DNA from: a virus
Direction: 5' to 3' (one strand)
Length of the DNA: 14,540 bases
Virus record (IMG/VR): IMGVR_UViG_3300045988_150167
Below the pieces are notes generated by a model, which was not told the origin of the DNA, made no database searches, and saw nothing but the letters and a program-made list of their open reading frames with translations. This document shows, in pieces, positions 1 to 14,540 of this stretch; position 1 is the first letter of the stretch; the number at the start of each line of letters is the position of its first letter. The position numbers and the translations under genes are program-made.

Positions 1-288
1 TAGTACAGAATTCTGTAATATTCCGGTTCCCACCGTTACAGACTTCTGTACAGTTGCTTGTGCATGTCCTGCGAACACATGTCTATGGTGCATGTACACC
101 TGCAAGCAGGGCAGGGGAGTGCGTGCCGGTGTACATAGTAACAATTGCTAGTTATAAGAATGATACAAATGTCCATTGCATGAGCATATAGTACATGTAC
201 CCGCAAGGCGTTCTATGCTATACTATAATTGTACCATAAGGGTACATATCGCTATACGTCACACCGACATAGAAAGGGAGAATTTGAA
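1..288. repeat. Left inverted terminal repeat (ITR-L), a candidate protein-primed replication origin that also carries an early promoter, 5' UTR and SD
   Basis: The reverse complement of 14319-14540 is identical base-for-base to 1-222. Homology continues to 288 (partner 14257) with one 5-bp indel (extra CTATA at 223-227), two substitutions (265, 270) and a 1-nt indel just before the ATG. Confidence 0.95.
216..229 (+). promoter_or_regulatory. Candidate early promoter -10 region inside ITR-L
   Basis: TGcTATACT (extended -10, 216-224) overlaps TATAAT (224-229), about 60 nt upstream of ATG 289. No convincing -35, which an extended -10 tolerates. Confidence 0.5.
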
Positions 289-615
289 ATGATGATTATT
301 AAAGATGCTTTCAAAAGTTTATTTGGTTCCGTGCTAGAAACCGCAGTTTTGTTTGAAAATTGTGATGGATATTCTCAAAGCAAAATATTAGTAGAAGAAT
401 GTGCAGAACTCATTGTAGCTTTATCGCATTTTGAAAGAAATAGAATGGGAAGTTTTGATGAAATATTAGAAGAACTATCTCATGTGCTAATATCCTGTTT
501 TGCATTTATAATTTGCGCAAATATACCGCTGGATGGGATTATTGCAGAAGTAAATAAAAAATACAATAAGTATCATATTGATAGGAGTGTGAATAATGAT
601 GATTTTCGTGATTGA
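289..615 (+). CDS. MazG-like all-alpha NTP pyrophosphohydrolase (108 aa)
   Basis: AGGGAG SD at 275-280 lies 8 nt before ATG 289; the tracked ORF start at 229 is inside the ITR and has no SD. The acidic helix motifs EECAEL...EELSHVL have spacing typical of MazG/dimeric-dUTPase-like enzymes. Confidence 0.55.
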   Translation: MMIIKDAFKSLFGSVLETAVLFENCDGYSQSKILVEECAELIVALSHFERNRMGSFDEILEELSHVLISCFAFIICANIPLDGIIAEVNKKYNKYHIDRSVNNDDFRD

Positions 616-766
616 TATGCTTAACCATGTACATGTGTATGTGGGTATGAACATGCAGGAAGCTGTGAACGCGAAAAACGATTATATGTCATTTATGGGC
701 ATTTCCGATGAGTCTATCCAGATAGAGGTGATTTTGGATGCAAATAAAAGTATTAGTTGCCTGTGA
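596..766 (+). CDS. Small hypothetical protein (56 aa, below the ORF-track cutoff)
   Basis: AGGAG at 583-587 lies 8 nt before ATG 596. The frame stays open to TGA 764-766 and fills the otherwise unexplained gap between flanking genes, overlapping both. MMIFVIDMLNHVHVYVGMNMQEAVNAKNDYMSFMGISDESIQIEVILDANKSISCL. Confidence 0.4.
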   Translation: MMIFVIDMLNHVHVYVGMNMQEAVNAKNDYMSFMGISDESIQIEVILDANKSISCL

Positions 767-1421
767 GGAATCGCAGGTTGTATGCAAGGCGTTCCGTGCG
801 CGCGGATATGAAGCATACAGTTGTGATATTTTGGAGCCGTCTGGTGGGCATCCAGAATGGCATATTTTGGGCGATGCTCTGAACGCTCTCGCAGGTGGGG
901 AAATTGTTACAATGGACGGAGCAACTCATGATGCGGGAAATTGGGATTTACTGATTGCACATCCGCCTTGCACATACTTGTCAAATGCAGGTGCAAGGCA
1001 TTTGTGGAAAGGCCATGAATTACAGGCTGATAGAGTTAAGCTTGGTATACAAGCTAGAGACTTGTTTATGCGGTTTTTGTGGGCTGACGTACCTTTTAAA
1101 TGTGTGGAGAATCCGATACCATCAACAGTATTTTGCCTGCCGCCATATACGCAGGTTATACAGCCTTACCAGTTTGGGCACCCTTACACAAAGAAAACTT
1201 GTCTGTGGCTTAAAGGGTTGCCGCCTCTGGCGCCGACAAATGTTGTGGAACCTGTTGCTACATGGTGCCCAAGCGGAAGTTATAGTCAAAAACACGGTGC
1301 ACAATACAAAGGGATGTGTACAAAAGACCGTGCAAAAAATCGGGCAAAGACATTTGCAGGAATTGCCGAAGCTATGGCTGGTCAATGGGGTAGTTATATT
1401 ATGGAGGTGCTTAATAAATGA
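738..1421 (+). CDS. Short divergent DNA (cytosine-5)-methyltransferase-like protein (227 aa)
   Basis: AGAGGTG SD at 723-729. PPCTYLSNAG has the exact spacing of C5-MTase motif IV (PCQxFSxxG), and VENP matches motif VI (ENV). The N-terminal beta-strand KVLVACEESQ sits where motif I FxGxGG should be. Confidence 0.6.
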   Translation: MQIKVLVACEESQVVCKAFRARGYEAYSCDILEPSGGHPEWHILGDALNALAGGEIVTMDGATHDAGNWDLLIAHPPCTYLSNAGARHLWKGHELQADRVKLGIQARDLFMRFLWADVPFKCVENPIPSTVFCLPPYTQVIQPYQFGHPYTKKTCLWLKGLPPLAPTNVVEPVATWCPSGSYSQKHGAQYKGMCTKDRAKNRAKTFAGIAEAMAGQWGSYIMEVLNK

Positions 1422-1606
1422 CAATCCGTGATTTTTACCGGGCGTGCCTGTCAATGCAGCCTAAAACAAGTATCCGTGTGTATGATAACGACCGTTGCAT
1501 TTACAACGGTGAATATGGTGACTTGCCTTATACACTTGCAAAACATGAGTTTGAAACCTTGCTAGTTAATCCTATTATGGAGTGGAAATTTTATTTTAAC
1601 TCTTGA
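1418..1606 (+). CDS. Small hypothetical protein (62 aa), paralogue of the right-end gene 14008-14256
   Basis: ATGA start/stop overlap with the upstream gene. Shares DFYRxC...P....VY....GE(Y/F)...P...E.L with the 82-aa right-end protein. Confidence 0.6.
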   Translation: MTIRDFYRACLSMQPKTSIRVYDNDRCIYNGEYGDLPYTLAKHEFETLLVNPIMEWKFYFNS

Positions 1607-1631
1607 CAGGCACCCTATAATATGATACTAT
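1603..1631 (+). promoter_or_regulatory. Near-consensus sigma70/sigA promoter for the structural (late) operon
   Basis: TTGACA (1603-1608), 17-nt spacer, TGaTACTAT (TG at 1623-1624, -10 hexamer 1626-1631). It lies between the last left-arm early gene and the structural genes. Confidence 0.7.
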
Positions 1632-1632
1632 G

Positions 1633-1728
1633 AAATCGGGAAAAGATGCGCAAGCTATACGGACGGAATCCGGCGCACGACCTTGTAGCGGGTCAAGAGT
1701 CTTTTCCCGATTTTTGTATGTCCGTCCG
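1633..1728 (+). promoter_or_regulatory. Highly structured leader: attenuator/terminator, 5' stabiliser or candidate small RNA
   Basis: A perfect 14-bp stem (1633-1646 with 1700-1713) encloses two hairpins (1647-1651/1673-1677 and 1679-1682/1691-1694), giving a three-way junction. A T-run follows at 1711-1715. A further 8-bp complementarity (1660-1667 with 1721-1728) has pseudoknot topology and ends 12 nt before SD 1741-1746. Confidence 0.5.
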
Positions 1729-1752
1729 CTCTGTGAAAGTGAGGTGTAAACC

Positions 1753-1905
1753 ATGGAAGAGATTAGCACTATTATCCAGCAGGTGGGTTTCCCGATTGCG
1801 GCGTTTTTGTTGATGTGGTGGCAGAGTAACACGACCATCAAAGAAAACACCGCTGCTATTGTAAAACTCTGTGAGCACATGAGCAAAATGGACGGTGAAG
1901 CATAA
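1753..1905 (+). CDS. YvrJ-family-like small membrane protein (50 aa); possible holin-like function
   Basis: GAGGTG SD at 1741-1746, ATG at 1753. MEEISTIIQQVGFPIAAFLLMWWQSNTTIKENTAAIVKLCEHMSKMDGEA has one hydrophobic segment with the conserved GFP motif and the size typical of the YvrJ family. Below the ORF-track cutoff. Confidence 0.6.
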   Translation: MEEISTIIQQVGFPIAAFLLMWWQSNTTIKENTAAIVKLCEHMSKMDGEA

Positions 1906-2114
1906 TGTATGTTGTTATGTATGCCGACATTACCAGCGCGCAGGCATGGATTGTATACAGCAAATGCAGGCAATTGGGTATCGGCTATTGCAGCGAATAC
2001 ACCGCCAATTACAATCAAAACGTTGTATGCGGCCCTATGACAGCAGGCGACAAAGACACGCTTGTTAAACTTATCAATGACCCTGCCAAAACAACCGTAT
2101 TGAAAGAGGTGTAA
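1905..2114 (+). CDS. Hypothetical protein (69 aa)
   Basis: TAATG stop/start overlap with the upstream gene; co-oriented in a tightly packed operon. No recognisable motifs. Confidence 0.45.
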   Translation: MYVVMYADITSAQAWIVYSKCRQLGIGYCSEYTANYNQNVVCGPMTAGDKDTLVKLINDPAKTTVLKEV

Positions 2115-2119
2115 CAACT

Positions 2120-2410
2120 ATGACGATTGATGATATTATTGCCCTGTGTCGCGCAGGCTACACGAAAGACGACCTTTCAAAGCTTGTCACTCTTGACAAC
2201 GCTGCACCCGCTGCACCCGCTGCACCCGCTGCACCCGCCGCACTCGCTGCACCTGAAGAGGATGCAGGCAGTATTATTGCCGCAATTAACGCGCTCGGCG
2301 CGCAGATTAAAACAATTAACATTGCGGCAACCGAACAGCCTAAACCGCAGACCGCGGAAGAAGTGCTTGCAAGCATTATCTTGCCGCCAAAACCCGCAAA
2401 TCAGAAATGA
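2120..2410 (+). CDS. Putative scaffolding protein (96 aa) with an (AAP)n low-complexity linker
   Basis: GAGGTG SD. Its size (96 aa vs 98 aa for phi29 gp7) and its position immediately upstream of the capsid gene match phi29 gp7. Helix-prone ends flank an Ala/Pro repeat. Call rests on synteny only. Confidence 0.45.
   Translation: MTIDDIIALCRAGYTKDDLSKLVTLDNAAPAAPAAPAAPAALAAPEEDAGSIIAAINALGAQIKTINIAATEQPKPQTAEEVLASIILPPKPANQK
2201..2254 (+). repeat. 9-bp tandem repeat (GCTGCACCC x4 perfect, plus 2 degenerate units)
   Basis: Read directly: units at 2201, 2210, 2219 and 2228 are identical, while 2237 and 2246 diverge. Encodes AAPAAPAAPAAPAALAAP. Confidence 0.95.
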
Positions 2411-2420
2411 GGTGTAAACC

Positions 2421-3635
2421 ATGAATGATATGACTATTTCGCAGGCCGCGACCATCCTTGGTGAGGCCGTTGAACAGGCAACAGGACAGAAAGTTATTAC
2501 CAATATTGCAACGCCTGAACAGTTTGTTTCGGTCGCACAGACTGCCCTTAAAACAGGCTATGACCCGATTATGAACGCACTGTCCCAGATTTGGAGCCGG
2601 TCAATCTATGCAGTGCGTGATTATACCAGCCCTCTTACCAGCTTGGAGATGGATATGCCGCGATACGGAAACGCGCTGCGCAAGATTAGCCCTATTGCTG
2701 CAAAGATGCAGGACGACCAACGTTTTATTTGGCCTGTCGCATATGATGCAAAAGGCCATGCAGCTAACGCACTTGGCAACGGTCAGAGTGTGGATATGTA
2801 TAAGATTAACAAGCAGGAAGTCTTGCAGACTAACTTTTACGGCACGGCTGTTTATGACCAGCCCTACACCACGTTCCGAGACCAGCTTGACGTGGCAATG
2901 TCTGGTGCTGATGAATTTATGCGTTTCAACGCCATGAACATGACCGAACGCAACAATGACAAAGAGTCTTACCGTGAAGCCGTTGCCCGTGGTATGCAGG
3001 CCAACTTTATTGCTGCGATTCTGGATGAAAAGCAGACTGCGCGTGTTGTCCATCTGTTGACCGAATACAACACGGAAAGCGGCCTGGAGCTTACCGCGCA
3101 AAGTGTATATCAGCCCGCGAACTTTGCGCCTTTTATGCGTTGGGTTGCCGCACGCATCAATGTTATTGCCCGTCTGATGGGTGAGCGCAGTCAGATGTAC
3201 CAGACCGTCATTAACGCGAAACCCGTTTTGCGCCATACCCGCGCCGAGAATCTGCGCGTTGCACTGTATAGTAAGGCTTACGAGCAGATGCGTACTATGG
3301 TTATGTCGCCCACTTACCACGACAATTATTTGACGCTCGGCAATTTTGAAAGCATCAACTTTTGGCAGAGCATCGAAAGTCCCGACAGTATCGCAGTTAC
3401 GCCGGTGTACACCAGCACCACAGGCGCGGTTAAGAAAGCGACCGCAGAAGTTGAGCAGGCAGGCATCTTTGGCATCATGCATGACCGTGATGCACTAGGC
3501 TATTGCTATACCAACGTGTGGAGCGCAACAACGCCACTTAATATCAGCGGCGGTTATTGGAACACCGAAGAGCACGCAACAATTAAGACTATTCAGGACA
3601 ATACCGAAAAGGCCGTTGTGTTGCTGCTCGACTAA
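2421..3635 (+). CDS. Major capsid protein, phi29 gp8-like (404 aa)
   Basis: GAGGTGTAAACCATG initiation region. Position follows the scaffold candidate, and a strong terminator follows directly. N-terminal region resembles remembered phi29 gp8 in pattern (ATxxxxxxVxxxxLxxxxxxxxNxxxxxIxxxxxxxR...). Confidence 0.7.
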   Translation: MNDMTISQAATILGEAVEQATGQKVITNIATPEQFVSVAQTALKTGYDPIMNALSQIWSRSIYAVRDYTSPLTSLEMDMPRYGNALRKISPIAAKMQDDQRFIWPVAYDAKGHAANALGNGQSVDMYKINKQEVLQTNFYGTAVYDQPYTTFRDQLDVAMSGADEFMRFNAMNMTERNNDKESYREAVARGMQANFIAAILDEKQTARVVHLLTEYNTESGLELTAQSVYQPANFAPFMRWVAARINVIARLMGERSQMYQTVINAKPVLRHTRAENLRVALYSKAYEQMRTMVMSPTYHDNYLTLGNFESINFWQSIESPDSIAVTPVYTSTTGAVKKATAEVEQAGIFGIMHDRDALGYCYTNVWSATTPLNISGGYWNTEEHATIKTIQDNTEKAVVLLLD

Positions 3636-3648
3636 CTTTTAATAATAG

Positions 3649-3679
3649 CCCCGTGTCAGTTATGGCACGGGGTATTTTT
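3649..3679 (+). terminator. Rho-independent terminator/attenuator after the capsid gene
   Basis: Stem CCCCGTG(TC) 3649-3657 pairs with (GG)CACGGGG 3664-3672 around a 6-nt loop, followed by TATTTTT 3673-3679. Confidence 0.8.
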
Positions 3680-3694
3680 GAAAGAGGTGAGATT

Positions 3695-5170
3695 TTGAAT
3701 ATCACGCTATATCAATTTTCCAAAAAATTAAACAGCACCGCCCGCCCGTCCGGCACGTCAAAAGGCGTGCAAGGGCAGTTGCGGGAATCTTGCAGCATGT
3801 TAGCGCCGGAAATTGGTTTTGTGTCGTTTGGTCAAACGGAAAGTCCGCACGCGTGGAACTATGCATACATTCCAGATTTTGGCAGATTTTATTATATTGA
3901 CAACTGGACATGGACAGCTGGCATGTGGTATGCGAGTATGACCGTTGACCCTCTGGCAAGCTGGCGCGATGCAATCGCCAACAGCACTGAATATATTGTA
4001 AGAGCTGCAAGCGCTGTCAACCCTAATGTTATTGATACAACATACCCAACATTTGCAGGTTGCAATCAAGCGCATGTAGATATTACAGGGCTTTTTACAG
4101 ACCAACTTTCACGTGGCACATTTATCATGTCGGTGCAGGCAGGCGGAGACCAAGCCAAGTTTGGCACAAACACTACGCTACTTTGCACGCCCGGCGCAAT
4201 GTATAATTTCGCGCAAAAGTTACTTGCAAGCGCCGACTACTTGCAGATTGACCCCAACGAGATTAGCGCGAGTCTTTCCAAAGCCTTGTTTAATCCTATA
4301 CAATATATATCATATTTGATGTGGCTGCCTGTTAATGTTTTGCCGTCAGACCTCAAACCCTTGTCAAGTGTCCCTCTTGGCTGGTGGTCAATTGACGCCG
4401 GTACAGGGTTTTTTGTTCTAGACGAAAGACACGATAAAGTAACATGGGAACACACTCTTGCTATTCCGCGCCACCAGCAGGCAGACACAAAGCATAAATT
4501 TTTGCGCGCGGCACCGTACAGTGAATATAAATTATATATGCCGGGGTTTGGGCTGATTGATATTGATGCAAGTAAGCTGTATAATATGGATAGCTTAACA
4601 ATCAGTATTGTGATTGACTTGTACACCGGCAACATGACCTTGCAGTTTATGGACGGTGACAAGCCGTTTCAAACTCTTTCTGGATGTTGCGCGGTGCAAG
4701 CGCAGATTGGGCAGATTGCAAGCATGGTTACAAGCGAAAGCGGAGTTGTGCAGGCCACTGTTGGTGGATTAGTTGGCGGCGCTCAGGCATTTTTTCAGCA
4801 GGCTGCGGACATTACCCAAAAAGTGCATAACTGGATTAACGGTGCGGATACATTAGGTTTAGGCCAAAACGCCGCAGCAATTGGCAACGGCATCCAGAGC
4901 GGCGCACAGCAGGCAACCGCAGAAAGTGTTTCAAAAGGCGGGCAAGGTGGCGTTGCGGAATATGGTATTACCCCTTATTTACAATGTAAGTTTTGGAATC
5001 TGGTTGACCAAGCCCCTGAGCACCGAGGCTATCCGCTGTGCGAGAAACGCAAAATTGGCAGCTTGTCCGGCTATATCATGTGTTCGGACAGCGATTTTTC
5101 CGCGCCTGCAACCTCAATGGAAATTAGCGCAATCCGGGAACATCTTAATAATGGTTTTTATTTTGAGTAA
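3695..5170 (+). CDS. Tail knob / distal tail tube protein, phi29 gp9-like (491 aa)
   Basis: GAGGTG at 3684-3689 lies 5 nt before in-frame TTG 3695; the tracked GTG 3653 and ATG 3662 lie inside the terminator hairpin. Also has a Gly/Ala/Gln-rich segment (VGGLVGGAQA...GNGIQSGAQQA). The C-terminus (GYPLCEKRK...ISAIREHLNNGFYFE) resembles the phi29 gp9 C-terminus (GYKINRVKK...LQEIRTIFDNGITLW). Confidence 0.7.
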   Translation: MNITLYQFSKKLNSTARPSGTSKGVQGQLRESCSMLAPEIGFVSFGQTESPHAWNYAYIPDFGRFYYIDNWTWTAGMWYASMTVDPLASWRDAIANSTEYIVRAASAVNPNVIDTTYPTFAGCNQAHVDITGLFTDQLSRGTFIMSVQAGGDQAKFGTNTTLLCTPGAMYNFAQKLLASADYLQIDPNEISASLSKALFNPIQYISYLMWLPVNVLPSDLKPLSSVPLGWWSIDAGTGFFVLDERHDKVTWEHTLAIPRHQQADTKHKFLRAAPYSEYKLYMPGFGLIDIDASKLYNMDSLTISIVIDLYTGNMTLQFMDGDKPFQTLSGCCAVQAQIGQIASMVTSESGVVQATVGGLVGGAQAFFQQAADITQKVHNWINGADTLGLGQNAAAIGNGIQSGAQQATAESVSKGGQGGVAEYGITPYLQCKFWNLVDQAPEHRGYPLCEKRKIGSLSGYIMCSDSDFSAPATSMEISAIREHLNNGFYFE

Positions 5171-5183
5171 AGGAGTTGATTAT

Positions 5184-5735
5184 ATGGCAAGCTATCCACA
5201 ATGTATCACAGACGAGAGCACAATTACAGTGACCGCAGCATATCCGTATTATTCGGACGGCTCTCACCACGGCGGCATTGACACCAAGCATCCAACTGAT
5301 TTTTTGGCGTTTGCACCGCAGGCCGGGACGATTGTCACGGCGCACACTTGGCAAGGCGGTAAAACCGGTAACGATAGTTGGGGCAATTATATTGTGGTCG
5401 ATATGGGCAACAAGCGTTATTGGTTGGCTGCGCATTTTAAGACACAGACACACAAGGTCGGAGAGGTGCTCAAAGCTGGCGATTTAATCGGCGTACAGGG
5501 GCAGACCGGCAATGCAACCGGCATCCACACTCATTGGGAATATTGGGTAGGCGGTCGCTCTACTCGATACCGTCAAGACCCGTCACAGATTTTGGGCATC
5601 CCAAACGCAGTAGGTAAGTATGATGTAACATGGAGTGCAGACAATCCGCCCGGCCCCGGCCCGGAACCGCCCACGCCGGGTAAAAAAGCAATCCCGGTAT
5701 GGTTATTGCTTAAAATGGCAAGGAGGTACACCTGA
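5184..5735 (+). CDS. M23 (LytM/lysostaphin-type) metallopeptidase, a peptidoglycan hydrolase (183 aa)
   Basis: AGGAG at 5171-5175, ATG at 5184. Has the HxxxD motif (SHHGGID) and the HxH motif (GNATGIHTHWE). A Pro-rich linker PPGPGPEPPTPG is followed by the short basic/hydrophobic tail KKAIPVWLLLKMARRYT. Confidence 0.85.
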   Translation: MASYPQCITDESTITVTAAYPYYSDGSHHGGIDTKHPTDFLAFAPQAGTIVTAHTWQGGKTGNDSWGNYIVVDMGNKRYWLAAHFKTQTHKVGEVLKAGDLIGVQGQTGNATGIHTHWEYWVGGRSTRYRQDPSQILGIPNAVGKYDVTWSADNPPGPGPEPPTPGKKAIPVWLLLKMARRYT

Positions 5736-7250: not shown

Positions 7251-7262
7251 GGGGGTTATAGC

Positions 7263-9728
7263 ATGTTTGATACCAGATGGCCTTATACCGATTTCCACAA
7301 CTTAAACCTTGATTGGATTCTGGAGACGCTCAAAAAGCAGGATGCGGCTATTGCGGATTTTATTTCGCTTAATAGCATTACCTACGCAAACCCGTTGCAG
7401 TGGGATATTACCCGACAGTATCCCAAAAATCAGGTTGTGCTTGATACCAACGGAGACGGCTATTTGAGCGTGCAGCCGGTGCCGGTTGGCGTTGAGATTG
7501 CTAACACCGACTATTGGACAAAAATTGGCAATTTTTCCGAATTGTGGAGCTCGGTCAAATTGGCAATCACGGCAGCAGATGAGGGACTCAAAACCACGGC
7601 AAGCGCAGACCGTGCAAGCGGCGACCTTGTATGGCTCAATAATATCCTATATGTCTGCACCACCGCAATTACACGCGGCACCGAGTACGGCACTAACAAC
7701 ACCGCAAAAACCACGATTGATGCAAGACTTGCCAATTTGGCAAACGCTGTGAGCACGCTGCAAAACAACATTACAAATATTAACAACACGTTGCCCAACA
7801 AGATTGACAAGGACACCACCGGAGACCTTGCGCAGACGGTCAGCGGCAACTATAATCAAACGGTTGACGGTAACACGGCATTGACGGCCAAACGTTTCGA
7901 TATCTATACCCAATTTGGCAAGGCTTTTACCTCTCATTCTGGCGTAACATCAATCGGTAACGATAATGTCCCGACATGGATTTACGGCAAAGAGCTTCGG
8001 TTGGCATCTACACCGCTGGTAAACATTGATGATAATTACGCATATGCTACCATTGGCACAAGTGTTGATGCAGAGACAAAATTTTTGGTAAGCCGCACCG
8101 GCAAAATCCCCGATAGTATCAAACCGTCCCCCCACAGCATTGAAGAATTTCAGGAACTCAAAAAAGACGGCACCGATGATATTACCGCAACCCTTAACAC
8201 ATACACCAAACAATTCCCGCTGTTCATCCCGGTCGGCATCTATAAAATCAGCGCACCGGTGCAGCTCAAACATAGCTTGTACGGTGCAAGCGCGTCCCGT
8301 GACCCGGCACGCGGCAGCAGTGACACAATATTGCAGTATACCGGCAATCCGACAGCGTTTGGCAGCCTTGGCGTGCTCACTGTATCCGGCAATGATGTAG
8401 ATGGCAATGTCGTCATTGCAAATCTGGATATTATCTGTAACGGCATGATTGGCGGTATTGTGTATACCACGGACGTATACACCGACAATTACATCTATAA
8501 TGTAAGTATCAGCGGCGTTAAATCCTATGGCGTGTACTTGCAGCCCAGCACTAGCAAGCTGAGCCGGTATTGTTACATGGATAATGTAACGGTATGGGGC
8601 TTTAGTGATGTGCATCCCGCGGAGCGTGTCGCCGGTAACGTTGCGTTTTATTGGGGCGACAAGTCTCCCGACTGCGATTGCAATAACCTTTTGGCGATGG
8701 TGTGCCAGACCGGTTTTGACTGCCGTACTAACGTGTTTGGCTGCAACTGGATTACCTATAATGGTATTCCGGCAGGCGGCACTGGTGGCGCGGACGCTAA
8801 TACATGGTGGGAAAACACCAATGGCCTTAAAGTCACTAACAATGACGTACACATTACTAACCTGTATCTTGATACTTGCCGCCGTGGCATTGTATTTGAC
8901 GGGCCGGGCAAGGCGGCTGCATATATTAACAACCTGATTTACACTGTTAACGATGACACGGCAACCACAGGAGAGGGCAACGCAGCAATTGCACTGATTG
9001 GCACTAGCCCTAGTCCGCAGTTGACGGTTGATGGCGGTGTAATTAACCGCAGCGCCAAAGTCTCCACCACGGTGCAGAGCATCGGGCAATACCCGGTTAC
9101 AGCCATGATGTGCAAAATCAATAATGTGTATATCTACACTAAGCGAGAGTATATTTTTACGGGCAACGGTCAGTATATTTGCAAGGCGGGCGAGCACCGG
9201 TGTATTGACCTTGCAATTACAGACCAGACCCAGTACACCGTTGATGGGCATTCGGAGACCGGAGACCCTGAACAGTATAAGGCATTTGCCTATATTCCGG
9301 TGCCGTCCGACAGCAACACCTCACAGGGTTGTATCCGTATCTGTGATCGTAACGACATTGATTATACTGTCTTTATTTCCAACAATCCGGAATCTGGCGA
9401 TTTGTTTGCAATCAGCGCTTTTGATAACCGCAAACTCAATCAAGCCATTTATGGGGCAACAGCCGGCACAGGACGGACAGTTACTTGGGATGTAGTCACA
9501 GACCTTGACAAGTTGTATTATGTCAATGATGGTGCTGCTATCATCCTTTATTTTAAGCGCCCTGCATCTTATGCAGTTACGGTGCAGGTGAGTGGCTTCT
9601 TACAGGGCAATTCTCCTGTCATCCTCGACCGCATCCGCAACATGGACGGCACTCCAATGGACTTCCCGCGCTGGAATAATCATGACGGCATGACTGCTAT
9701 CAAGATTTTGCGCCCTAACATTTCTTAA
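7263..9728 (+). CDS. Tailspike / pre-neck appendage-like protein with a pectate-lyase-type beta-helix (821 aa)
   Basis: Sits at the position of phi29 gene 12 with similar size (gp12 is 854 aa). The N-terminal YTDFHNLNLDWIL motif is common in Firmicutes phage fibre/appendage N-termini. The central DGTDDITATLN...IPVGIYKIS is the pectate_lyase_3-type signature. Confidence 0.75.
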   Translation: MFDTRWPYTDFHNLNLDWILETLKKQDAAIADFISLNSITYANPLQWDITRQYPKNQVVLDTNGDGYLSVQPVPVGVEIANTDYWTKIGNFSELWSSVKLAITAADEGLKTTASADRASGDLVWLNNILYVCTTAITRGTEYGTNNTAKTTIDARLANLANAVSTLQNNITNINNTLPNKIDKDTTGDLAQTVSGNYNQTVDGNTALTAKRFDIYTQFGKAFTSHSGVTSIGNDNVPTWIYGKELRLASTPLVNIDDNYAYATIGTSVDAETKFLVSRTGKIPDSIKPSPHSIEEFQELKKDGTDDITATLNTYTKQFPLFIPVGIYKISAPVQLKHSLYGASASRDPARGSSDTILQYTGNPTAFGSLGVLTVSGNDVDGNVVIANLDIICNGMIGGIVYTTDVYTDNYIYNVSISGVKSYGVYLQPSTSKLSRYCYMDNVTVWGFSDVHPAERVAGNVAFYWGDKSPDCDCNNLLAMVCQTGFDCRTNVFGCNWITYNGIPAGGTGGADANTWWENTNGLKVTNNDVHITNLYLDTCRRGIVFDGPGKAAAYINNLIYTVNDDTATTGEGNAAIALIGTSPSPQLTVDGGVINRSAKVSTTVQSIGQYPVTAMMCKINNVYIYTKREYIFTGNGQYICKAGEHRCIDLAITDQTQYTVDGHSETGDPEQYKAFAYIPVPSDSNTSQGCIRICDRNDIDYTVFISNNPESGDLFAISAFDNRKLNQAIYGATAGTGRTVTWDVVTDLDKLYYVNDGAAIILYFKRPASYAVTVQVSGFLQGNSPVILDRIRNMDGTPMDFPRWNNHDGMTAIKILRPNIS

Positions 9729-9732
9729 CAGC

Positions 9733-9767
9733 AACAGCCCCTGCCAATACGGCAGGGGCTGTTTTTT
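9733..9767. terminator. Bidirectional Rho-independent terminator at the convergence point
   Basis: An 11-bp GC-rich stem CAGCCCCTGCC (9735-9745) pairs with GGCAGGGGCTG (9751-9761) around a 5-nt loop. It is flanked by AA on the left and TTTTTT on the right, between the tailspike stop (9728) and the ATPase stop (9766-9768). Confidence 0.85.
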
Positions 9768-10830
9768 ATACTTTTCGACTTGAGATTTTCGCGCCCTCTT
9801 TGAAATACTTATCTAGTAATATTTCACAGATGGGAGATTCGAAAACCACAATATCAGTATAATAGTAAGCAAGACGGAACCACGCAAAATGGGCGTTAAA
9901 CATCTGTATACCGCGTTCGGTACTTTCGTATACCGGGCAACTACCAGACCTGTGCGTGGTAACATAATATTTTTCTTTCGATTTGTGCTTATAAATTTCA
10001 AGCTCACCCATGACACATACAGGTTTATATTCAATAATGTTTTGGGGTTTTATCTGGCTGTATTCCTGCCGAAAATCGTTATTAAGTGCCATGGCACTGT
10101 ATAACTTATCTTTGGTAAGACGGTACAAAGCAGTATTTGCTTTTTGTATAGAGATGGGAGAGTGTTGCAGCATTACAAGAGTAATACCGCGCTCTGTGTC
10201 TTGCCACATTTCCGTCTTGGTATCAAGCATTTTTTGAGCGCGTGAAACAAGCCCCATGTCCAGAAACAGCGGGTTTGCAATATCGTTTGCGTTGGCAAGA
10301 CACAGCATTTTAAGAGGCGGTTCGCCTTTTAATTCTCTGTTACGATTAATAGTTTCATACGCGTTATAAAATGCAGCAGCTTCATTTTTCAAGGGGCGTT
10401 CGTGTTTTTCCGGGATAAATTCATCATAGATGCAGATTTTGCAATCCTCTGCGCTAAAGCCTCGCATATTGGAGATTGTGGACAGTGCGCAGGTGTAACC
10501 ATACGGCAGGCCGCCGGTGTATTTGCCCTCATCATCAACATCATAAAATGCGCTGCTGCCTTTGGAGATTGGAAAAGGCTTAATGCTTAAACCCATATCT
10601 TCACAGACCGGCTTTATGGGACTGAATTCCGGCTTATTAACAAGGTCAATCGCGGTTTGCGTTCGGCGCATTAGCATAAATGTAATGCGATGCTCAAGCA
10701 CATATTTTAATGCGCCGTATGTTTTACCGGTGCCACGTCCGCCGACAACCATAATATAAGGCGTTGGCAAGCCCATAATATAATCCATGTTCAGGTATCC
10801 GCTGTCTAGGTATAGTTTGTTCTTTTTCAT
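9766..10830 (-). CDS. DNA encapsidation (packaging) ATPase, phi29 gp16-like (354 aa)
   Basis: Walker A VVGGRGTGKTY (gp16 has IGARGIGKSY). Walker B ICIYDEFIPEK (gp16 has IVFDEFIREK). LANANDIANPLFL resembles gp16 LSNAVSVVNPYFL. Confidence 0.88.
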   Translation of the reverse strand: MKKNKLYLDSGYLNMDYIMGLPTPYIMVVGGRGTGKTYGALKYVLEHRITFMLMRRTQTAIDLVNKPEFSPIKPVCEDMGLSIKPFPISKGSSAFYDVDDEGKYTGGLPYGYTCALSTISNMRGFSAEDCKICIYDEFIPEKHERPLKNEAAAFYNAYETINRNRELKGEPPLKMLCLANANDIANPLFLDMGLVSRAQKMLDTKTEMWQDTERGITLVMLQHSPISIQKANTALYRLTKDKLYSAMALNNDFRQEYSQIKPQNIIEYKPVCVMGELEIYKHKSKEKYYVTTHRSGSCPVYESTERGIQMFNAHFAWFRLAYYYTDIVVFESPICEILLDKYFKEGAKISSRKV

Positions 10831-10851
10831 CTTTTACTCGCTTCATATTTC

Positions 10852-10885
10852 AAAAGGGCGGCGGTTTTCAAGCCGCCGCCCTTTT
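10852..10885 (-). terminator. Rho-independent terminator between the SSB and ATPase genes
   Basis: A 9-bp all-GC stem GGGCGGCGG (10856-10864) pairs with CCGCCGCCC (10873-10881). It is flanked by AAAA/TTTT, so a U-run follows the stem on either strand. Confidence 0.75.
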
Positions 10886-10917
10886 GTGGGGAGGAATTAT
10901 GTCAAGAATGGAAATGG

Positions 10918-11268
10918 TTAGTTCATCTTGCAACCGATATAATGACGGCCTTGCTTGCTTTCGCCACCAATGACTTCAACGTCAACACTGGCGAGGTCTG
11001 CGCCGTACTGGTTGGCAACATCGATGATTGCTTCAAAGTCGCGCTTAAACGTGCTGGAAATGGTACTGAAAGTGTCGCCCTCGCTGGTAAGCACTGCAAG
11101 CACTTCCAGCGTTTCGCCCTTGGCGTTTTCGTCCTCGTAGAGGGCGTAAGCCTCAATGTTAAAAGTTGCGCCTTCAAGCGTTTTCATGGGGCGTGAGTCG
11201 GGGTTGCGGGTCAGGTTGTACGCCTGCTTCATGGACAGATTTTCGGGAAAGCTCTTGATGATTTTCAT
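10918..11268 (-). CDS. Single-stranded DNA-binding protein, phi29 p5-like (116 aa)
   Basis: AAGGAG SD. Size matches p5 (124 aa). NIEAYALYED...GETLEVLAVLTSEGDTFSTISSTFKRDFEAIIDV...VEVIGGESKQG parallels remembered p5 IEANAIAQYK...[32 protein letters not shown]...VKVVQGTSSKG. Confidence 0.6.
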   Translation of the reverse strand: MKIIKSFPENLSMKQAYNLTRNPDSRPMKTLEGATFNIEAYALYEDENAKGETLEVLAVLTSEGDTFSTISSTFKRDFEAIIDVANQYGADLASVDVEVIGGESKQGRHYIGCKMN

Positions 11269-11322
11269 TGTTGTTACTCCTTTGTTCGTGTTTGTGTTTT
11301 GTAGCTTTCTTGCTACAATTAT

Positions 11323-11351
11323 ATGATACTACATTTATGACCAATTGTCAA
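11323..11351 (-). promoter_or_regulatory. Promoter for the SSB gene (minus strand)
   Basis: On the minus strand: TTGACA (11351-11346, overlapping the polymerase stop codon), 17-nt spacer, TATCAT (11328-11323). A small hairpin GTAGC/GCTAC (11301-11316) lies in the predicted 5' UTR. Confidence 0.6.
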
Positions 11352-13444
11352 TATCCATTTTCAAAATATTCATCTAGCCTGCCAATACCTTTCCGGGTGT
11401 AGTCGCAGCGCAAAAGCAAGTCCATGTATTCCGCAGTTATTCCCAGTTTATAGGTGCTTTCGCGGATAACAACGTTTGATGTAATTGACAATGTGTGACC
11501 GTCTATTGTAATGCTGTCTATCTCTGGACTATCATTGTATATAGATTCTGTTCCGCCAGCGTCCCAGAAAACAAAACCGGGCTTAAATGCGTCAATGCCG
11601 CCGTGGCGTTCCAACTCTTTTGCGCCCTCTTTTTTGTTTACACCTGCGATTGTGCAGCACAATGGGCTTTCCGGCGTTTCACGGTAACAATATTTTTTCG
11701 CGCCCAACGTGGCAAATTCGCACATATCATGTTCAGGTTCAAAAACGCCCATATAATGCATTTTGCCGGAGGGGTCAGCAGCATAAGCACCTGAGGCTTT
11801 ACTATCTTTGATTCGTGCTTTGTTGTATTTTGTCCAGTCAATGTCACCCAAATATTTGACAGAATCGGTATCGCAATAAACAAAGCCATCCCCTGCAAGC
11901 TCTATGCCCTCTTCCAGCCTGTAGCGTGCATTGGCTGTCACCCATACGCCCCATTGATAGCACAAAAACGCGTTGCGCAGATTATGCGACAAGATATTTT
12001 CAATTGGCGTTTTTTCATCAATTTCAAACTCTTCATCCGGTGTGTATAAAATGGAGCGTTTGCCCGGGTCTTGTGCCATCATACCGTATATACTATTGAG
12101 CTTGTTTTTGCTTTTCATGTAGTACAATTCTTGACCGGGTACATTTTTCAGACTGGTTTTTGCGCGGTAATAATCTATTGCACATTCAATCAGTTCACGC
12201 GGCAATTTGGCATATGTGGATTGCCAACAATCATATGCCCGGAATCCAGAAAACTTGTACTCTTTAAGGATAATTGCAAGGTCAACGTCTGTCACGGTTG
12301 TTTCGAGGTATTTTGCGCTCAATATTCGCCCGTTGTCGCGGTCGGGGTCTATCACGTTTCGGCTCTTATCAATCGTTAGATATGGACAACCCCAACAGGG
12401 GTTGATTAACTCAACGTCTGCTAATGCAATACGCATTATCAACGCTTTGCGGTGCTTGTTGAGTTTCCGTTTGAGTCCATCCAAAGTTATTTCGCCAATA
12501 GGCTCAAAAGCTCGCATTGGGTACAGACAATTGCACAACACATCCGGGTAACTGCTGCTTCGGTCTGCGCTCTGGATTTTACCACGCAGCACTTGACCGG
12601 TATAATAGCGGTTGGCGTGGGTGTTTCCGCCGCGAAACGCTTCACGCAGCATTGTGTATAATTCCGCGTCAGGCTGGATTGCGCCGAGACGTTCCAGCCC
12701 TGCGCGTTTCATCGCGGCGCGTGCATCGCGGCGCACATATCCGGTAGAGGTTAGAGGGATTGTGTACAGGTTGTCATTATCGTGGCGCATTTCGATTGTC
12801 AGGGCTTCACACAGACCTAGTACATCGTTTACACAATATTCTAGTTCATCATCCGACAACGGAGTCCAGGGATAGCGGGGTTTATTGTAGTCAAATTTTA
12901 CACCGGATAGTTTACCGTGAGCAACGCCCATTTTGTGGGTGTATGCATCAAGGCTCATATTGCTATGCAAATAGCTGCAACGAAATTCAAAAAAATCACC
13001 GTACATCGTGCATTTCAGGACTTTACGGCAATCAACTGCAAAAATCTCATCATTTGTAAAATGGTAAATTCCGCGCAAAAACTGAAACTCGTATGACAGA
13101 TTGTGAACATACACACAGAGCTGCAAATGATAATCTTCTTGAGATTGTTCTTGCATGCAAGCTTCAAGGCTGGCACACAATGCTTCAAATTCATCCCATG
13201 TTCTGCCAACAACAGTTAGATTAATAGGTTCTGCAAAATGCCATTGCCAAATATACATGACAGCTTGTTCTATCGACTTAATGCGAGTTGTTTCAATATC
13301 AAACGCTGTCACAATATCAAGCAATTTTGTCTTTTTAGTTCTTGTGATTTTCCGTTCCAAAACAGGCAGCGCGGCGAATTTCTCTAGCGGAAAATCAATC
13401 ACCGAACAAATGGCTTGCCCATTCTTCAAGGTCTTTACTTTCAA
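11348..13444 (-). CDS. Family-B DNA polymerase, protein-primed type (698 aa)
   Basis: Exo I FDIETT, Exo II NLSYEFQF, Exo III YCVNDVLGL, motif A DRSSSYP (phi29 DVNSLYP), motif B KLNSIYGMMA (phi29 MLNSLYGKFA), motif C YCDTDS (identical to phi29) and KxY GAKKYC. The start is TTG at 13444, preceded by AGAGGTAAGG. Confidence 0.93.
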   Translation of the reverse strand: MKVKTLKNGQAICSVIDFPLEKFAALPVLERKITRTKKTKLLDIVTAFDIETTRIKSIEQAVMYIWQWHFAEPINLTVVGRTWDEFEALCASLEACMQEQSQEDYHLQLCVYVHNLSYEFQFLRGIYHFTNDEIFAVDCRKVLKCTMYGDFFEFRCSYLHSNMSLDAYTHKMGVAHGKLSGVKFDYNKPRYPWTPLSDDELEYCVNDVLGLCEALTIEMRHDNDNLYTIPLTSTGYVRRDARAAMKRAGLERLGAIQPDAELYTMLREAFRGGNTHANRYYTGQVLRGKIQSADRSSSYPDVLCNCLYPMRAFEPIGEITLDGLKRKLNKHRKALIMRIALADVELINPCWGCPYLTIDKSRNVIDPDRDNGRILSAKYLETTVTDVDLAIILKEYKFSGFRAYDCWQSTYAKLPRELIECAIDYYRAKTSLKNVPGQELYYMKSKNKLNSIYGMMAQDPGKRSILYTPDEEFEIDEKTPIENILSHNLRNAFLCYQWGVWVTANARYRLEEGIELAGDGFVYCDTDSVKYLGDIDWTKYNKARIKDSKASGAYAADPSGKMHYMGVFEPEHDMCEFATLGAKKYCYRETPESPLCCTIAGVNKKEGAKELERHGGIDAFKPGFVFWDAGGTESIYNDSPEIDSITIDGHTLSITSNVVIRESTYKLGITAEYMDLLLRCDYTRKGIGRLDEYFENGY

Positions 13445-14021
13445 TTTTAACCTTACCTCTCTTTATACGAGAATATTTGTCGGGAAAGTCACGGGCAGCT
13501 TCTTCTTGCTTTTTAATAAAATCTGAAAACCATTTTTGCAGTTTTGACGCTGGTATTTTGCCTTTTGAGACGCTATTATAAAGCATTGCAATAATTTCCG
13601 AGTCTACAATTGTATTTTGCGCAATTGCGCGCATAGACTCCATAAACCCAACAAAAGACAAAAAATTCCGCGGTGTGATAAAATCATACCCGTTTGCGTT
13701 GAGCTTGGCAACCATGTCCTTACGTTCGCGCTTAAAACGAGTAATAGAAATATCTTGACTCAAAAAGCGCTTTGCTTCAGCAAGAGCATAGACAAGTTGC
13801 TGCTTGTTCTTAATCTGCACAACAGGCGGCAACTTGCCATAATGCTTGACTTCTTCAAGGTCGGCAAATTCTGATTGTTCAAGGCGCTCTTGACGTTTAC
13901 GCACGATAGAGCGGAGCTTGCTGTATTCTTTACGCAGCTCTGCTTCGGTGTGCTTATTGAGATAATAAGGTGTATACTCTAGGTCTTGCCACGCGTATTG
14001 CGTAGGTTTACGCTTTGCCAA
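13395..14021 (-). CDS. Candidate terminal protein (208 aa, basic)
   Basis: Lies immediately upstream of the protein-primed polymerase and overlaps it, like phi29 gene 3 before gene 2, and the genome has ITRs. Lys/Arg-rich. The likely start is TTG 14021, 8 nt after GGAGAGGAG; the tracked ATG 14048 has no SD. No sequence motif confirms the call. Confidence 0.5.
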   Translation of the reverse strand: MAKRKPTQYAWQDLEYTPYYLNKHTEAELRKEYSKLRSIVRKRQERLEQSEFADLEEVKHYGKLPPVVQIKNKQQLVYALAEAKRFLSQDISITRFKRERKDMVAKLNANGYDFITPRNFLSFVGFMESMRAIAQNTIVDSEIIAMLYNSVSKGKIPASKLQKWFSDFIKKQEEAARDFPDKYSRIKRGKVKIESKDLEEWASHLFGD

Positions 14022-14256
14022 ATTCCATGCTCCTCTCCTGCAATGCAAATATTAACTTCACAACTTGAGAATCCCTTGCAATAATATTCAAATCTTCGAT
14101 AGTTGCGTCACGATATACATGCGGCATCGAGCGAAATTCACCTGTCCACATAGGCATACCGCCTTTCTCTGCACTGTATACGGAAACCAAAATATCGGGG
14201 TTTAGGGTATAGCACATGCGGTAAAAATCCAGTGGTGTGATAACGCGTTTTTTCAT
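14008..14256 (-). CDS. Small hypothetical protein (82 aa), paralogue of 1418-1606
   Basis: ATG 14256 is preceded by the ITR-borne AGGGAG SD; the tracked start 14346 lies inside the ITR. Shares the DFYRxC...P....VY....GEF...P pattern with the 62-aa left-arm protein. Confidence 0.65.
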   Translation of the reverse strand: MKKRVITPLDFYRMCYTLNPDILVSVYSAEKGGMPMWTGEFRSMPHVYRDATIEDLNIIARDSQVVKLIFALQERSMEFGKA

Positions 14257-14540
14257 TTTCAAATTCTCCCTTTCTGTGTCAGTGTGACGTATAGCGATAT
14301 GTACCCTTATGGTACAATTATAGCATAGAACGCCTTGCGGGTACATGTACTATATGCTCATGCAATGGACATTTGTATCATTCTTATAACTAGCAATTGT
14401 TACTATGTACACCGGCACGCACTCCCCTGCCCTGCTTGCAGGTGTACATGCACCATAGACATGTGTTCGCAGGACATGCACAAGCAACTGTACAGAAGTC
14501 TGTAACGGTGGGAACCGGAATATTACAGAATTCTGTACTA
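14257..14540. repeat. Right inverted terminal repeat (ITR-R)
   Basis: Mirror copy of 1-288 (see ITR-L). The last base of the window pairs with the first base. Confidence 0.95.
14317..14325 (-). promoter_or_regulatory. Candidate early promoter (perfect extended -10) inside ITR-R
   Basis: The minus strand reads TGcTATAAT (14325-14317), about 60 nt upstream of ATG 14256. Confidence 0.55.

Follow-up and report, generated by a model that had tools for sequence, protein, structure and literature searches.

We analyzed a 14,540-bp stretch of viral DNA (IMG/VR record IMGVR_UViG_3300045988_150167; 46% GC), the whole of which is called the window below. The window is, very probably, the essentially complete linear double-stranded DNA genome of an uncultured, probably virulent phi29-type podovirus of the human gut, with about 3 to 10 nucleotides (nt) probably absent from each tip. 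At the head of its late genes lies a conserved three-way-junction RNA, the architecture of which resembles that of the prohead RNA (pRNA) of phi29. The genome by itself is of modest interest, and the pRNA-like conserved RNA is the part worth following up.

Conserved three-way-junction RNA behind the late promoter

The RNA came to light in the annotation of the gap between positions 1607 and 1752 (fold z = -4.0), where the following two features were placed.

1603 to 1631, plus strand: late promoter, TTGACA-17-TGnTACTAT (from the sequence)
1632 to 1714, plus strand: three-way-junction RNA, ~83 nt, with prohead-RNA-like architecture (from the fold and covariation)

From the 5' end, the closing helix (16 bp) runs on without a break into the C helix (4 bp), which is followed by an 8-nt bulge present on the 5' side only (AAGCUAUA), the E hairpin (4 bp, loop CGGAA), a 2-nt junction, the D hairpin (5 bp, loop UGUAGC), a 4-nt junction, and the return strand of the closing helix. 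A UUUUUGU tract lies directly 3' of this helix. In ten close relatives the RNA is nearly invariant, while the spacer of the adjacent promoter varies, and the few changes that occur in the RNA are compensatory.

Covariance models were built iteratively from 10 (R1), 18 (R2), and 48 (R3) sequences. With these models, the RNA was located in more distant IMG/VR loci (39 of 62) and in contigs of metagenome-assembled genomes (MAGs; 11 of 16), as well as in 14 loci that earlier models had missed; in total, it was found in ~75 contigs, always on the strand of the late genes. Examples are 1603-1720 of the window (with the promoter), L015:5394-5476, L070:257-341, L019:5962-6038, and L044:4765-4840. In an alignment of 37 distinct sequences (A4), double-sided changes were observed at all 29 pairs, 95.2% of the cells were paired versus 39 to 46% with slid partners, and the covariation score was 0.74 versus 0.08 to 0.12; the pairing and covariation figures are inflated by the model-fitted alignment, but the margin is still very large. 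The strand of the RNA is fixed by its G-U pairs and by the far lower scores of the minus strand.

The bulge and the D loop are complementary to each other in nearly every sequence and change together. The pairs observed include GCUAUA/UGUAGC, GCUAUG/UAUAGC, GCACA/UGUGC, GAACA/UGUUC, GGUCA/UGACC, GUGCAG/CUGCAC, AAUCA/UGAUU, and UAAUCA/UGAUUA. The mean Watson-Crick run between a bulge and its own loop was 4.4 nt, versus 2.7 nt for swapped partners (32 unique sequences; permutation P < 5e-5), and held-out sequences had a run of 4 to 6 nt in 14 of 14 cases. Besides, the E loop CGGAA is invariant except for rare CAGAA or CGAAA.

Rfam searches of the whole window at E ≤ 1 and of positions 1600 to 1760 at E ≤ 10 returned no pRNA and no other family, apart from a hepatitis C virus (HCV) stem-loop placed on a terminator hairpin, the sole match in the window, which we dismissed as chance; eleven relatives gave no Rfam match. 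The pRNA model RF00044, which scores 145 bits on phi29 itself, had no match at E ≤ 10 in positions 1600 to 1760. Conversely, no copy of the RNA was detected by R2 or R3 in phi29, Amedibacillus phage AD70P2, Clostridium phage HM2, or Acinetobacter phage Phanie. A hammerhead or another known ribozyme was also considered and dropped; the junction lacks the conserved CUGANGA/GAAA core and has no Rfam match.

Packaging RNA or late leader

The RNA agrees with the RF00044 consensus element for element (A helix, C helix, 5'-side CE bulge, E hairpin, junction, and D hairpin). In phi29, the CE bulge and the D loop pair between pRNA molecules, and the resulting ring docks the ATPase (PMC5066667). We give an even chance to the reading that the RNA at 1632 to 1714 is a miniature prohead (packaging) RNA, which would multimerize through kissing contacts between bulge and D loop and would attach the gp16-type ATPase to the portal. 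That the covariance models do not recognize each other's RNA is unsurprising, because known pRNAs share only ~12% sequence similarity (PMC5066667). Prohead RNA and its requirement for packaging have been shown experimentally only for phi29 and related Bacillus phages, to which pRNA is treated as confined in the literature searched (PMC5066667, PMC11476376), with the exception that a predicted pRNA in archaeal ampullaviruses is mentioned in a preprint (bioRxiv 10.1101/2020.07.06.188573). The origin of pRNA is debated (PMC11476376; bioRxiv 10.1101/2020.07.06.188573).

The rival that comes nearest is a cis-acting 5' leader of the late operon, in which the bulge-loop pairing would be an intramolecular tertiary contact; we place its probability somewhat short of even. 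As such, it could act as a put-like processive antiterminator or an attenuator, bind a regulatory protein, or stabilize the mRNA. The location of the RNA speaks for a leader: it directly follows a strong promoter in all ~75 contigs (of the 62 unique RNAs, 50 immediately follow a promoter that agrees with the consensus at 9 or more of 12 positions), and the first late start codon lies 8 to 35 nt 3' of it in most genomes. The U-tract terminator after the closing helix occurs only in the window's clade, and in most genomes the RNA would therefore be the 5' end of the late mRNA. Besides, transcription of the late operon has to pass an internal terminator behind the capsid gene, which makes a put-like antiterminator or an attenuator plausible, and the failure of R2 on the phi29 pRNA and of RF00044 on the window RNA fits a leader as well. 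Against a leader, every feature of the pRNA architecture recurs here, down to a bulge on the 5' side only whose sequence is complementary to the loop of the second hairpin, and no described leader or put RNA is known to us with such an arrangement. In the window's clade, the 20-bp helix and UUUUUGU ahead of the late genes would release a free small RNA. Furthermore, the ATPase of the phage is of the gp16 type, and in phi29 this class depends on pRNA. Intermolecular and intramolecular pairing of the bulge and the loop are indistinguishable by sequence analysis. To any role other than packaging RNA or leader we assign a small chance.

If the RNA is a packaging RNA, RNA-dependent packaging would be ancestral or widespread in a large clade of 12- to 15-kb gut and rumen podoviruses and not a peculiarity of Bacillus phages; for the use of packaging RNA by phi29-type motors outside the Bacillus phages, the ~75 covarying sequences are a concrete candidate. 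If it is a leader instead, it would represent a new, well-supported class of cis-regulatory RNA in gut phages. The family also offers naturally occurring, short, self-complementary three-way-junction RNAs of possible interest to RNA nanotechnology.

Inverted terminal repeats and physical ends

A preliminary description of this DNA, made from the sequence alone, had interpreted the window as the whole genome of a small protein-primed podovirus of the phi29 type, with inverted terminal repeats (ITRs) at its ends and probably of a lineage distinct from phi29. This is supported, and all phi29 core modules are present. Bases 1 to 222 are indeed the exact reverse complement of 14319 to 14540, a 222-nt match for which chance is excluded as the source. 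In a global alignment of both ends, the repeat goes on beyond this match: past a 5-bp indel (left arm CTATACTATAAT, right arm CTATAAT), ~62 nt with 2 mismatches extend to the outermost start codons, at 289 (plus strand) and 14256 (minus strand), giving arms of ~289 nt (left) and ~284 nt (right). Each arm comprises the terminus, a promoter-like element, a 5' untranslated region (5'UTR), and a ribosome-binding site.

1 to 289: left ITR, exact over 1 to 222 and imperfect to 289
14257 to 14540: right ITR, exact over 14319 to 14540 and imperfect inward to 14257
4 to 17 and 37 to 50, left ITR: 14-bp palindromes TACAGAATTCTGTA and TACAGACTTCTGTA, 33 bp apart
near 29 to 36, left ITR: GTTCCCAC motif
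92 to 136, left ITR: GC-rich inverted repeat
about 216 to 229, left ITR: inward promoter-like TGCTATACTATAAT, ahead of the first gene's 5'UTR and ribosome-binding site

The 5-bp indel (218 to 222 of the window) alters the promoter-like element, which reads TGCTATACTATAAT at the left end; at the right end, where 5 bp of the left arm are deleted, it becomes TGCTATAAT, a perfect extended -10 element. The longer form stands at the left end of all relatives, and in one of them (29451_35) the second palindrome unit is repeated. A TTCCCC or TTCCCA motif stands ~25 to 45 nt from the ends in the distant relatives L082 (Phanie), L044, L023, L037, L064, L098, and L032, and this terminal motif may be an origin element.

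The preliminary description had the ITR running out to the terminal base. The arms are identical up to the contig end, but a match to the last base is no proof of physical ends, because a de Bruijn assembler can use one unitig for both arms. Three relatives reach 3 to 10 nt further, and all of them begin GCGTA(G/C)TA (contig starts GCGTAGTAGGTACAG, GCGTAGTAGACAG, and GCGTACTATATACAG, versus TAGTACAG in the window). Since relatives start further out (GCG...), the contig is probably ~3 to 10 nt short of each physical end.

From overlapping loci, nine IMG/VR contigs of the same genus were rebuilt; each is collinear with the window, and no permuted contig occurs, as also holds for the 11 close relatives as a whole (12.8 to 14.5 kb). 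Two of the rebuilt contigs have exact ITRs, of 300 nt in 109471 and 294 nt in 149043. The ITRs of the relatives differ from that of the window at many positions yet are identical within each genome, which indicates concerted evolution, as expected of true ITRs. In locus L032 (IMGVR_UViG_3300045988_066254; PolB 50% identical), the remnant GTGCTCTTCCGATCT, which we take to be the 3' part of an Illumina adapter, is fused to GCGAAAACC at both ends, and this is direct evidence of defined physical termini in this group. Relatives from the window's own clade likewise begin with GCG. The termini of L075 (AAAGTAGACAAC) have the same first six bases as the phi29 terminal repeat AAAGTA.

The length of an ITR in metagenome contigs should not be taken at face value. 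Exact terminal inverted repeats of 141 nt (L086, L087, and L096), 77 nt (L098 and the contig of L054), and 55 nt (L002, 138778, 088938, and L043) have the k-mer sizes of assemblers, and such contigs are thus truncated inside a longer real ITR. Among isolates, the ITR measures 171 nt in Phanie and 170 nt in HM2. In more than 200 homologue clusters of the terminal-protein (TP) candidate and of the tail knob, contigs reach at most ~15.4 kb, without a case of integration, and in GTDB genomes 16 of 16 capsid matches lie on stand-alone contigs of at most 14.2 kb. Thus, the element is neither integrated nor part of a larger molecule.

Replication and packaging genes of the right arm

Start sites of the open reading frames (ORFs) were chosen by Shine-Dalgarno context and are consistent with gene calls on independent contigs. 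The right arm has the following features.

14008 to 14256, minus strand: first right-arm ORF, 82 amino acids (aa), no assigned function
13395 to 14021, minus strand: TP candidate, 208 aa, all-alpha by prediction; 50-nt overlap with the start of the polymerase
11348 to 13444, minus strand: protein-primed DNA polymerase of family B (PolB), 698 aa (PF03175, phrog_1907, YCDTDS)
11323 to 11351, minus strand: promoter-like site TTGACA-17-TATCAT, upstream of the SSB gene
10918 to 11268, minus strand: p5-like single-stranded DNA-binding protein (SSB), 116 aa (PF17427 family matches, hhalign to phi29 gp5)
10852 to 10886, minus strand: GC-rich hairpin and U-run between the SSB and ATPase genes
9766 to 10830, minus strand: gp16-type DNA packaging ATPase, 354 aa (PF05894)

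PolB, listed in the preliminary description with YCDTDS, matches PF03175 at 42 bits (cut-off 25.8); its match to phrog_1907 has an E value of 9e-57. Its translation shows the Exo, DxxSxYP-like, KxxxNSxYG, and YCDTDS motifs, and the best match in the PDB is the phi29 polymerase (1xhx, E 0.001). The gp16-type ATPase matches PF05894 at 48.7 bits, above the cut-off. As to the p5-like SSB, 15 of 22 family members match PF17427, and the family profile aligns to phi29 gp5 with an hhalign probability of 95.7%; the window SSB as a single sequence is just under the Pfam cut-off. The hairpin with its U-run separates the SSB gene from the ATPase gene, and therefore expression of the ATPase would depend on read-through.

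The family of the TP candidate stands directly upstream of PolB in 52 loci, and its profile matches the ORF at the same position in Phanie (probability 96%, E 2e-9) and in Amedibacillus phage AD70P2 (62%). The Phanie ORF upstream of PolB has been treated as the p3 counterpart, and TPs are so divergent that even HHpred joins only those of phi29 and Nf (PMC11476376). The candidate itself had no match in Pfam, PHROGs, or NCBIfam. Its putative priming residues are Ser141, placed in a predicted loop, and Tyr33, within the conserved motif EYSRLR. The TP function, for which a candidate had already been named, is inferred from position and family conservation, and no homology to phi29 gp3 was detected.

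Late operon and left-arm genes

The remaining features lie on the plus strand, up to a hairpin at the point where the two arms converge.

289 to 615, plus strand: candidate MazG-like nucleoside triphosphate (NTP) pyrophosphohydrolase, 108 aa, weak (PF12643 at 21 bits, cut-off 27; phrog_2245, E 3e-6)
596 to 766, plus strand: small ORF, 56 aa, no assigned function
738 to 1421, plus strand: DNA methyltransferase-like protein, 227 aa (phrog_757, E 1e-56)
1418 to 1606, plus strand: small ORF, 62 aa, conserved in close relatives
1753 to 1905, plus strand: first late ORF, 50 aa, one hydrophobic helix, holin candidate
1905 to 2114, plus strand: small ORF, 69 aa, no assigned function
2120 to 2410, plus strand: scaffolding-protein candidate, 96 aa, with a PAAPAAPAAPAA tract (position and size only)
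2421 to 3635, plus strand: major capsid protein, gp8-like, 404 aa (family profile versus 6qvk)
3648 to 3673, plus strand: hairpin and T-run after the capsid gene, resembling an intrinsic terminator
3695 to 5170, plus strand: tail knob, gp9 fold, 491 aa, TTG start behind GAGGTG (AlphaFold model versus 5fb5)
5184 to 5735, plus strand: M23 peptidoglycan endopeptidase, 183 aa (PF01551)
5735 to 6646, plus strand: portal or upper collar connector, gp10-like, 303 aa (PF05352)
6639 to 7250, plus strand: lower collar or proximal tail tube connector, gp11-like, 203 aa (profile versus 6qz9)
7263 to 9728, plus strand: tail spike or appendage candidate at the gp12 position, 821 aa (weak BLASTP match to gp12)
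9733 to 9763: bidirectional terminator hairpin between the convergent late operon and ATPase gene

For most of the core set named in the preliminary description (PolB, SSB, ATPase, the gp8-, gp9-, and gp10-like proteins, and the M23 enzyme), the assignment stands; the exceptions are the TP, for the reason given above, and the weakly matching gp12-like protein. Single-sequence searches of the PDB with the capsid, the tail knob, the spike, and the TP candidate gave nothing useful. With family profiles, the PDB search worked for the capsid (phi29 capsid 6qvk, E 4e-4) and the collar (phi29 gp11, 6qz9, E 7e-5), and it failed for the tail knob and the TP candidate. The AlphaFold model of the tail knob (predicted local distance difference test [pLDDT] 81) matches 5fb5 (E 1e-12, probability 1.0, template modeling score about 0.5), and the portal matches PF05352 at 67.9 bits, above the cut-off. 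BLASTP matched the 821-aa protein no more than weakly to gp12, at the start of its beta-helix (E 3e-4), and the scaffold candidate shows no similarity to phi29 gp7. The 50-aa late ORF had been called YvrJ-like; its match to PF12841 (E 0.051, 13.6 bits versus a cut-off of 29.5) is not significant, and we rejected this assignment.

The M23 peptidase domain that had been read as a lysin was confirmed (PF01551) and aligns to the M23 half of phi29 gp13 (E 2e-7); the enzyme may be a lysin and/or a gp13-like tail-associated enzyme. At its C terminus, a proline-rich linker (PPGPGPEPPTPG) is followed by a short amphipathic or hydrophobic tail (KKAIPVWLLLKMARRYT), with no recognizable cell-wall-binding domain. 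The slot between the knob and portal genes, which holds the M23 gene in the window, is variable, being filled in about two-thirds of the relatives and otherwise empty.

Further regions differ among relatives. The left-arm module at 290 to 1416 (MazG-like protein, 56-aa ORF, and methyltransferase-like protein) is present in 0 of 10 close relatives, which have other, shorter sequences there; by such comparison this region behaves as a hypervariable cargo slot beside the ITR. Positions about 3968 to 5092 (tail knob) and about 7613 to 8150 (821-aa protein) are replaced or unalignable in several relatives of ~85% identity. This pattern suggests that the tail knob, in its center, and the tail spike, in its N-proximal part, have undergone mosaic exchange.

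Weighing the genome reading

Several points weigh against an essentially complete phi29-type genome with the gene functions given here. The weakest link is the 208-aa protein, for which position and family conservation argue for a TP: hhalign against phi29 gp3 gave a probability of 0.2%, no PDB sequence match was found with the single sequence or with a 20-member profile, and its AlphaFold model (pLDDT 72, all-alpha) has no structural neighbor in the PDB. In view of the hhalign value and the missing neighbor, we do not class it as homologous to gp3. The assignments of the tail spike and the scaffold are weak as well. The ends of the window genome are known from an assembled contig alone, and its terminal bases are uncertain, the window beginning with TAGTA and the relatives with GCGTAGTA. 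Finally, the evidence on the host is incoherent, as MAG bins with relatives span unrelated phyla.

Some of these points touch the question of whether the inverted repeat is an artifact of assembly and the true molecule is circular, circularly permuted, or longer than the window. That several relatives have inverted repeats of exactly 55, 77, or 141 nt, typical k-mer sizes, would agree with such an artifact, as would the fact that both arms of the window stop at the same base, as if one unitig had been used twice. We nevertheless find it hardly credible: 222 nt is not a k-mer size, and the repeat goes on imperfectly, through the indel and the 2 mismatches, into sequence unique to each arm. The independent contigs with their own 294- to 300-nt ITRs, identical within each genome and unlike that of the window, the 170- to 171-nt ITRs of the isolates Phanie and HM2, and the adapter joined to both ends of L032 all argue for a linear molecule, and among hundreds of contigs no permuted or longer one was seen (permutation was judged on the close relatives compared directly). 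It is also very improbable that the element is nonviral or defective, i.e., a linear plasmid, a phage-plasmid, or a satellite merely carrying a protein-primed polymerase. Linear plasmids also have protein-primed PolB genes and ITRs, and phage-plasmids are included among phi29-like sequences (PMC11476376), but the window has a conserved full virion module (capsid, scaffold candidate, portal, collar, tail knob, and spike) together with a packaging ATPase, and its size equals that of isolated phages in the same group. Moreover, searches of the window proteins in Pfam, PHROGs, and NCBIfam revealed no partition, integrase, or plasmid replication genes. Neither an integrase nor a repressor was seen in the domain searches (Pfam and PHROGs), and no tRNA genes were found in the window.

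The size of the genome had been thought to be near the lower limit for tailed phages. This is wrong, as a tblastn search with PolB retrieved smaller isolates of 10.4 to 12.3 kb overall, namely, Vibrio phage K58 g2 (10.4 kb), Astrithrvirus, Phanie, and Amedibacillus phages AD70P2 and AD70P3.

Proposed life cycle

We propose that replication is protein primed from both ends, with the 208-aa protein encoded just upstream of the polymerase as the primer, and that the polymerase would start within the terminal ~50 bp of the ITR, which contains the two palindromic 14-mers and the TTCCC motif. The displaced strand would be coated by the p5-like SSB, and this mode of replication would keep both ITR arms alike. 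Transcription may proceed inward from the promoter inside each ITR. The left-arm transcript would then carry accessory early genes (MazG-like and methyltransferase), and the right-arm transcript would carry the genes of the 82-aa protein, the TP candidate, and the polymerase, with SSB and ATPase expressed from the internal promoter. The strong sigma-A-type promoter at 1603 to 1631 would drive the ~83-nt RNA and, via read-through, the late operon with the genes of the small membrane protein, the scaffold candidate, capsid, tail knob, M23 peptidase, portal, lower collar, and tail spike. Unit-length DNA would finally be packaged by the gp16-type ATPase.

Relatives, classification, and host

In a megablast search against GenBank phages, one record was found, MT835998.1 ("UNVERIFIED: Bacteriophage sp.," human feces, Mexico; 14,017 bp, unannotated), with 86.6% identity over 86% of the window. 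About 11 IMG/VR contigs (UViGs) have PolB with 95 to 97% aa identity and genomes of ~83 to 87% identity over 80 to 90% of the window. Identical proteins occur in a 14,540-bp JGI contig, presumably the window itself, in scaffold_2140 (14,285 bp) of the independent ENA assembly LIJU14-1_SAMEA2338637, made from a human-gut sample, and in the Logan assembly of ERR414246. MT835998.1, the ~11 UViGs, and the ENA scaffold have the gene order and size of the window (12.8 to 14.5 kb), whereas MT835998.1 and the UViGs lack the module at 290 to 1416 and have parts of the tail knob and spike replaced; they are unannotated and undescribed. The lineage is thus distinct from phi29, as had been proposed, but it is already catalogued, through these records and the ENA assembly from the same sample, though undescribed.

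By ICTV convention, a genus comprises phages with more than about 70% intergenomic nucleotide similarity. The product of identity and coverage, which approximates VIRIDIC values, is ~0.85 × 0.90 = 0.77 for MT835998.1 and 0.69 to 0.77 for the UViGs; on these estimates the window belongs to the same genus as MT835998.1 and the IMG/VR UViGs, and, since all values are below 95%, it is a separate species. Membership in the Salasmaviridae is not borne out by relatedness: BLASTP with phi29 matches only the portal and the ATPase, at 24 to 26% identity, and the tblastn matches of PolB and the capsid include no Salasmaviridae record. The Amedibacillus phages, labelled Guelinviridae, share seven core proteins with the window at 23 to 37% identity and were placed in clusters apart from the Clostridium Guelinviridae (PMC11476376). 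Evseev et al. (2024) listed more than 2000 phi29-like database entries, many of them 12- to 15-kb genomes from human metagenomes (PMC11476376), and Gulyaeva et al. (2022) reported ITR-bearing Caudoviricetes among the most prevalent viral operational taxonomic units of the gut (PMC9610469). The genome is a further species of a known, catalogued, and prevalent but uncultured gut lineage of very small tailed phages; its PolB falls in a cluster of 498 members at 90% identity, and its capsid in one of 348. Its nearest GenBank record being unannotated, the window is useful as an annotated reference.

In most relatives, a single strand carries TP, polymerase, SSB, ATPase, promoter and RNA, small membrane protein, scaffold, capsid, knob, the variable slot, portal, and collar, in this order. 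The TP-to-ATPase block is inverted at the right end in the window's clade, and therefore the genome has two convergent arms. The preliminary description had found the gene order unlike that of phi29. This holds for the inverted block of replication genes and ATPase at the right end, but the late order is essentially collinear (7-8-9-[13]-10-11-12).

A host in the Bacillota is plausible. Strong ribosome-binding sites of the GAGGTG type and TTGACA-17-TATAAT promoters fit Bacillota and argue against Bacteroidota, and the hosts of the nearest isolates belong to the Erysipelotrichales and Clostridia. Host inference from GTDB was rejected; the 16 matches are small stand-alone contigs in MAGs of unrelated phyla, which looks like binning noise. 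The MAG labels for L085 to L100 include Bacteroidales, Clostridia, Treponema, Kiritimatiellae, Alphaproteobacteria, Nanosyncoccus, and others. Public MAGs are contaminated by small phage genomes of this group.

Comparison with known phages

The Astrithrvirus group, with Salmonella phage astrithr, Acinetobacter phage Phanie, and Pectobacterium phage DU_PP_III (11.2 to 11.9 kb), is about 33% identical to the window in PolB and about 24% in the capsid, and Phanie has a TTCCCC motif about 30 nt from the end of its 171-nt ITR. The group differs from the window in its Gram-negative hosts, its smaller genomes, and the tail knob, which is split into two genes (PMC11476376); the three-way-junction RNA was not detected in the group (Phanie). 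The closest cultured relatives are the Amedibacillus phages AD70P2 and AD70P3 (12.3 kb; Guelinviridae in GenBank) and Clostridium phage HM2. BLASTP matches them to the window in PolB (36 to 37%), capsid (28%), portal (30%), and ATPase (30%), as well as in the knob, collar, and SSB. Like the window, they have ITRs, and their host belongs to the Bacillota. Unlike the window, they carry all genes on one strand, and their GC content is 27%, versus 46% in the window; identity over the shared proteins is no higher than 23 to 37%. The RNA was not detected in them even with search filters off.

With phi29, the window shares a linear genome with ITRs, a gene upstream of PolB in the position of gene 3, a p5-like SSB, a gp16-type ATPase, a gp10 portal, a gp8-like capsid, a gp11-like collar, a gp9-fold knob, the late order 7-8-9-10-11-12, and an RNA of pRNA topology, although the sequence similarity is marginal and barely detectable. 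The differences lie in the ITR (222 to 289 nt in the window, 6 nt in phi29), the genome size (14.5 versus 19.3 kb), the grouping of ATPase and replication genes at the right end, on the opposite strand, and the M23 gene, which is located between those of the knob and the portal and lacks a lysozyme domain. Homologues of the head fiber, p4, and p6 of phi29 were not found in the window.

As for the RNAs, that of the window measures ~83 nt and stands at the head of the late operon, whereas the phi29 pRNA measures 120 to 174 nt and is encoded at the left end. The window RNA is ~35 to 40 nt shorter than pRNA, has an invariant CGGAA E loop, and shows no sequence or covariance match to pRNA in either direction; its family is promoter-proximal in the late operon and, in most genomes, has no terminator of its own. 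The two nevertheless have the same order of elements, and in both the bulge and the D loop are mutually complementary, as AACC/GGUU in the phi29 pRNA (RF00044) and as GCUAUA/UGUAGC in the window.

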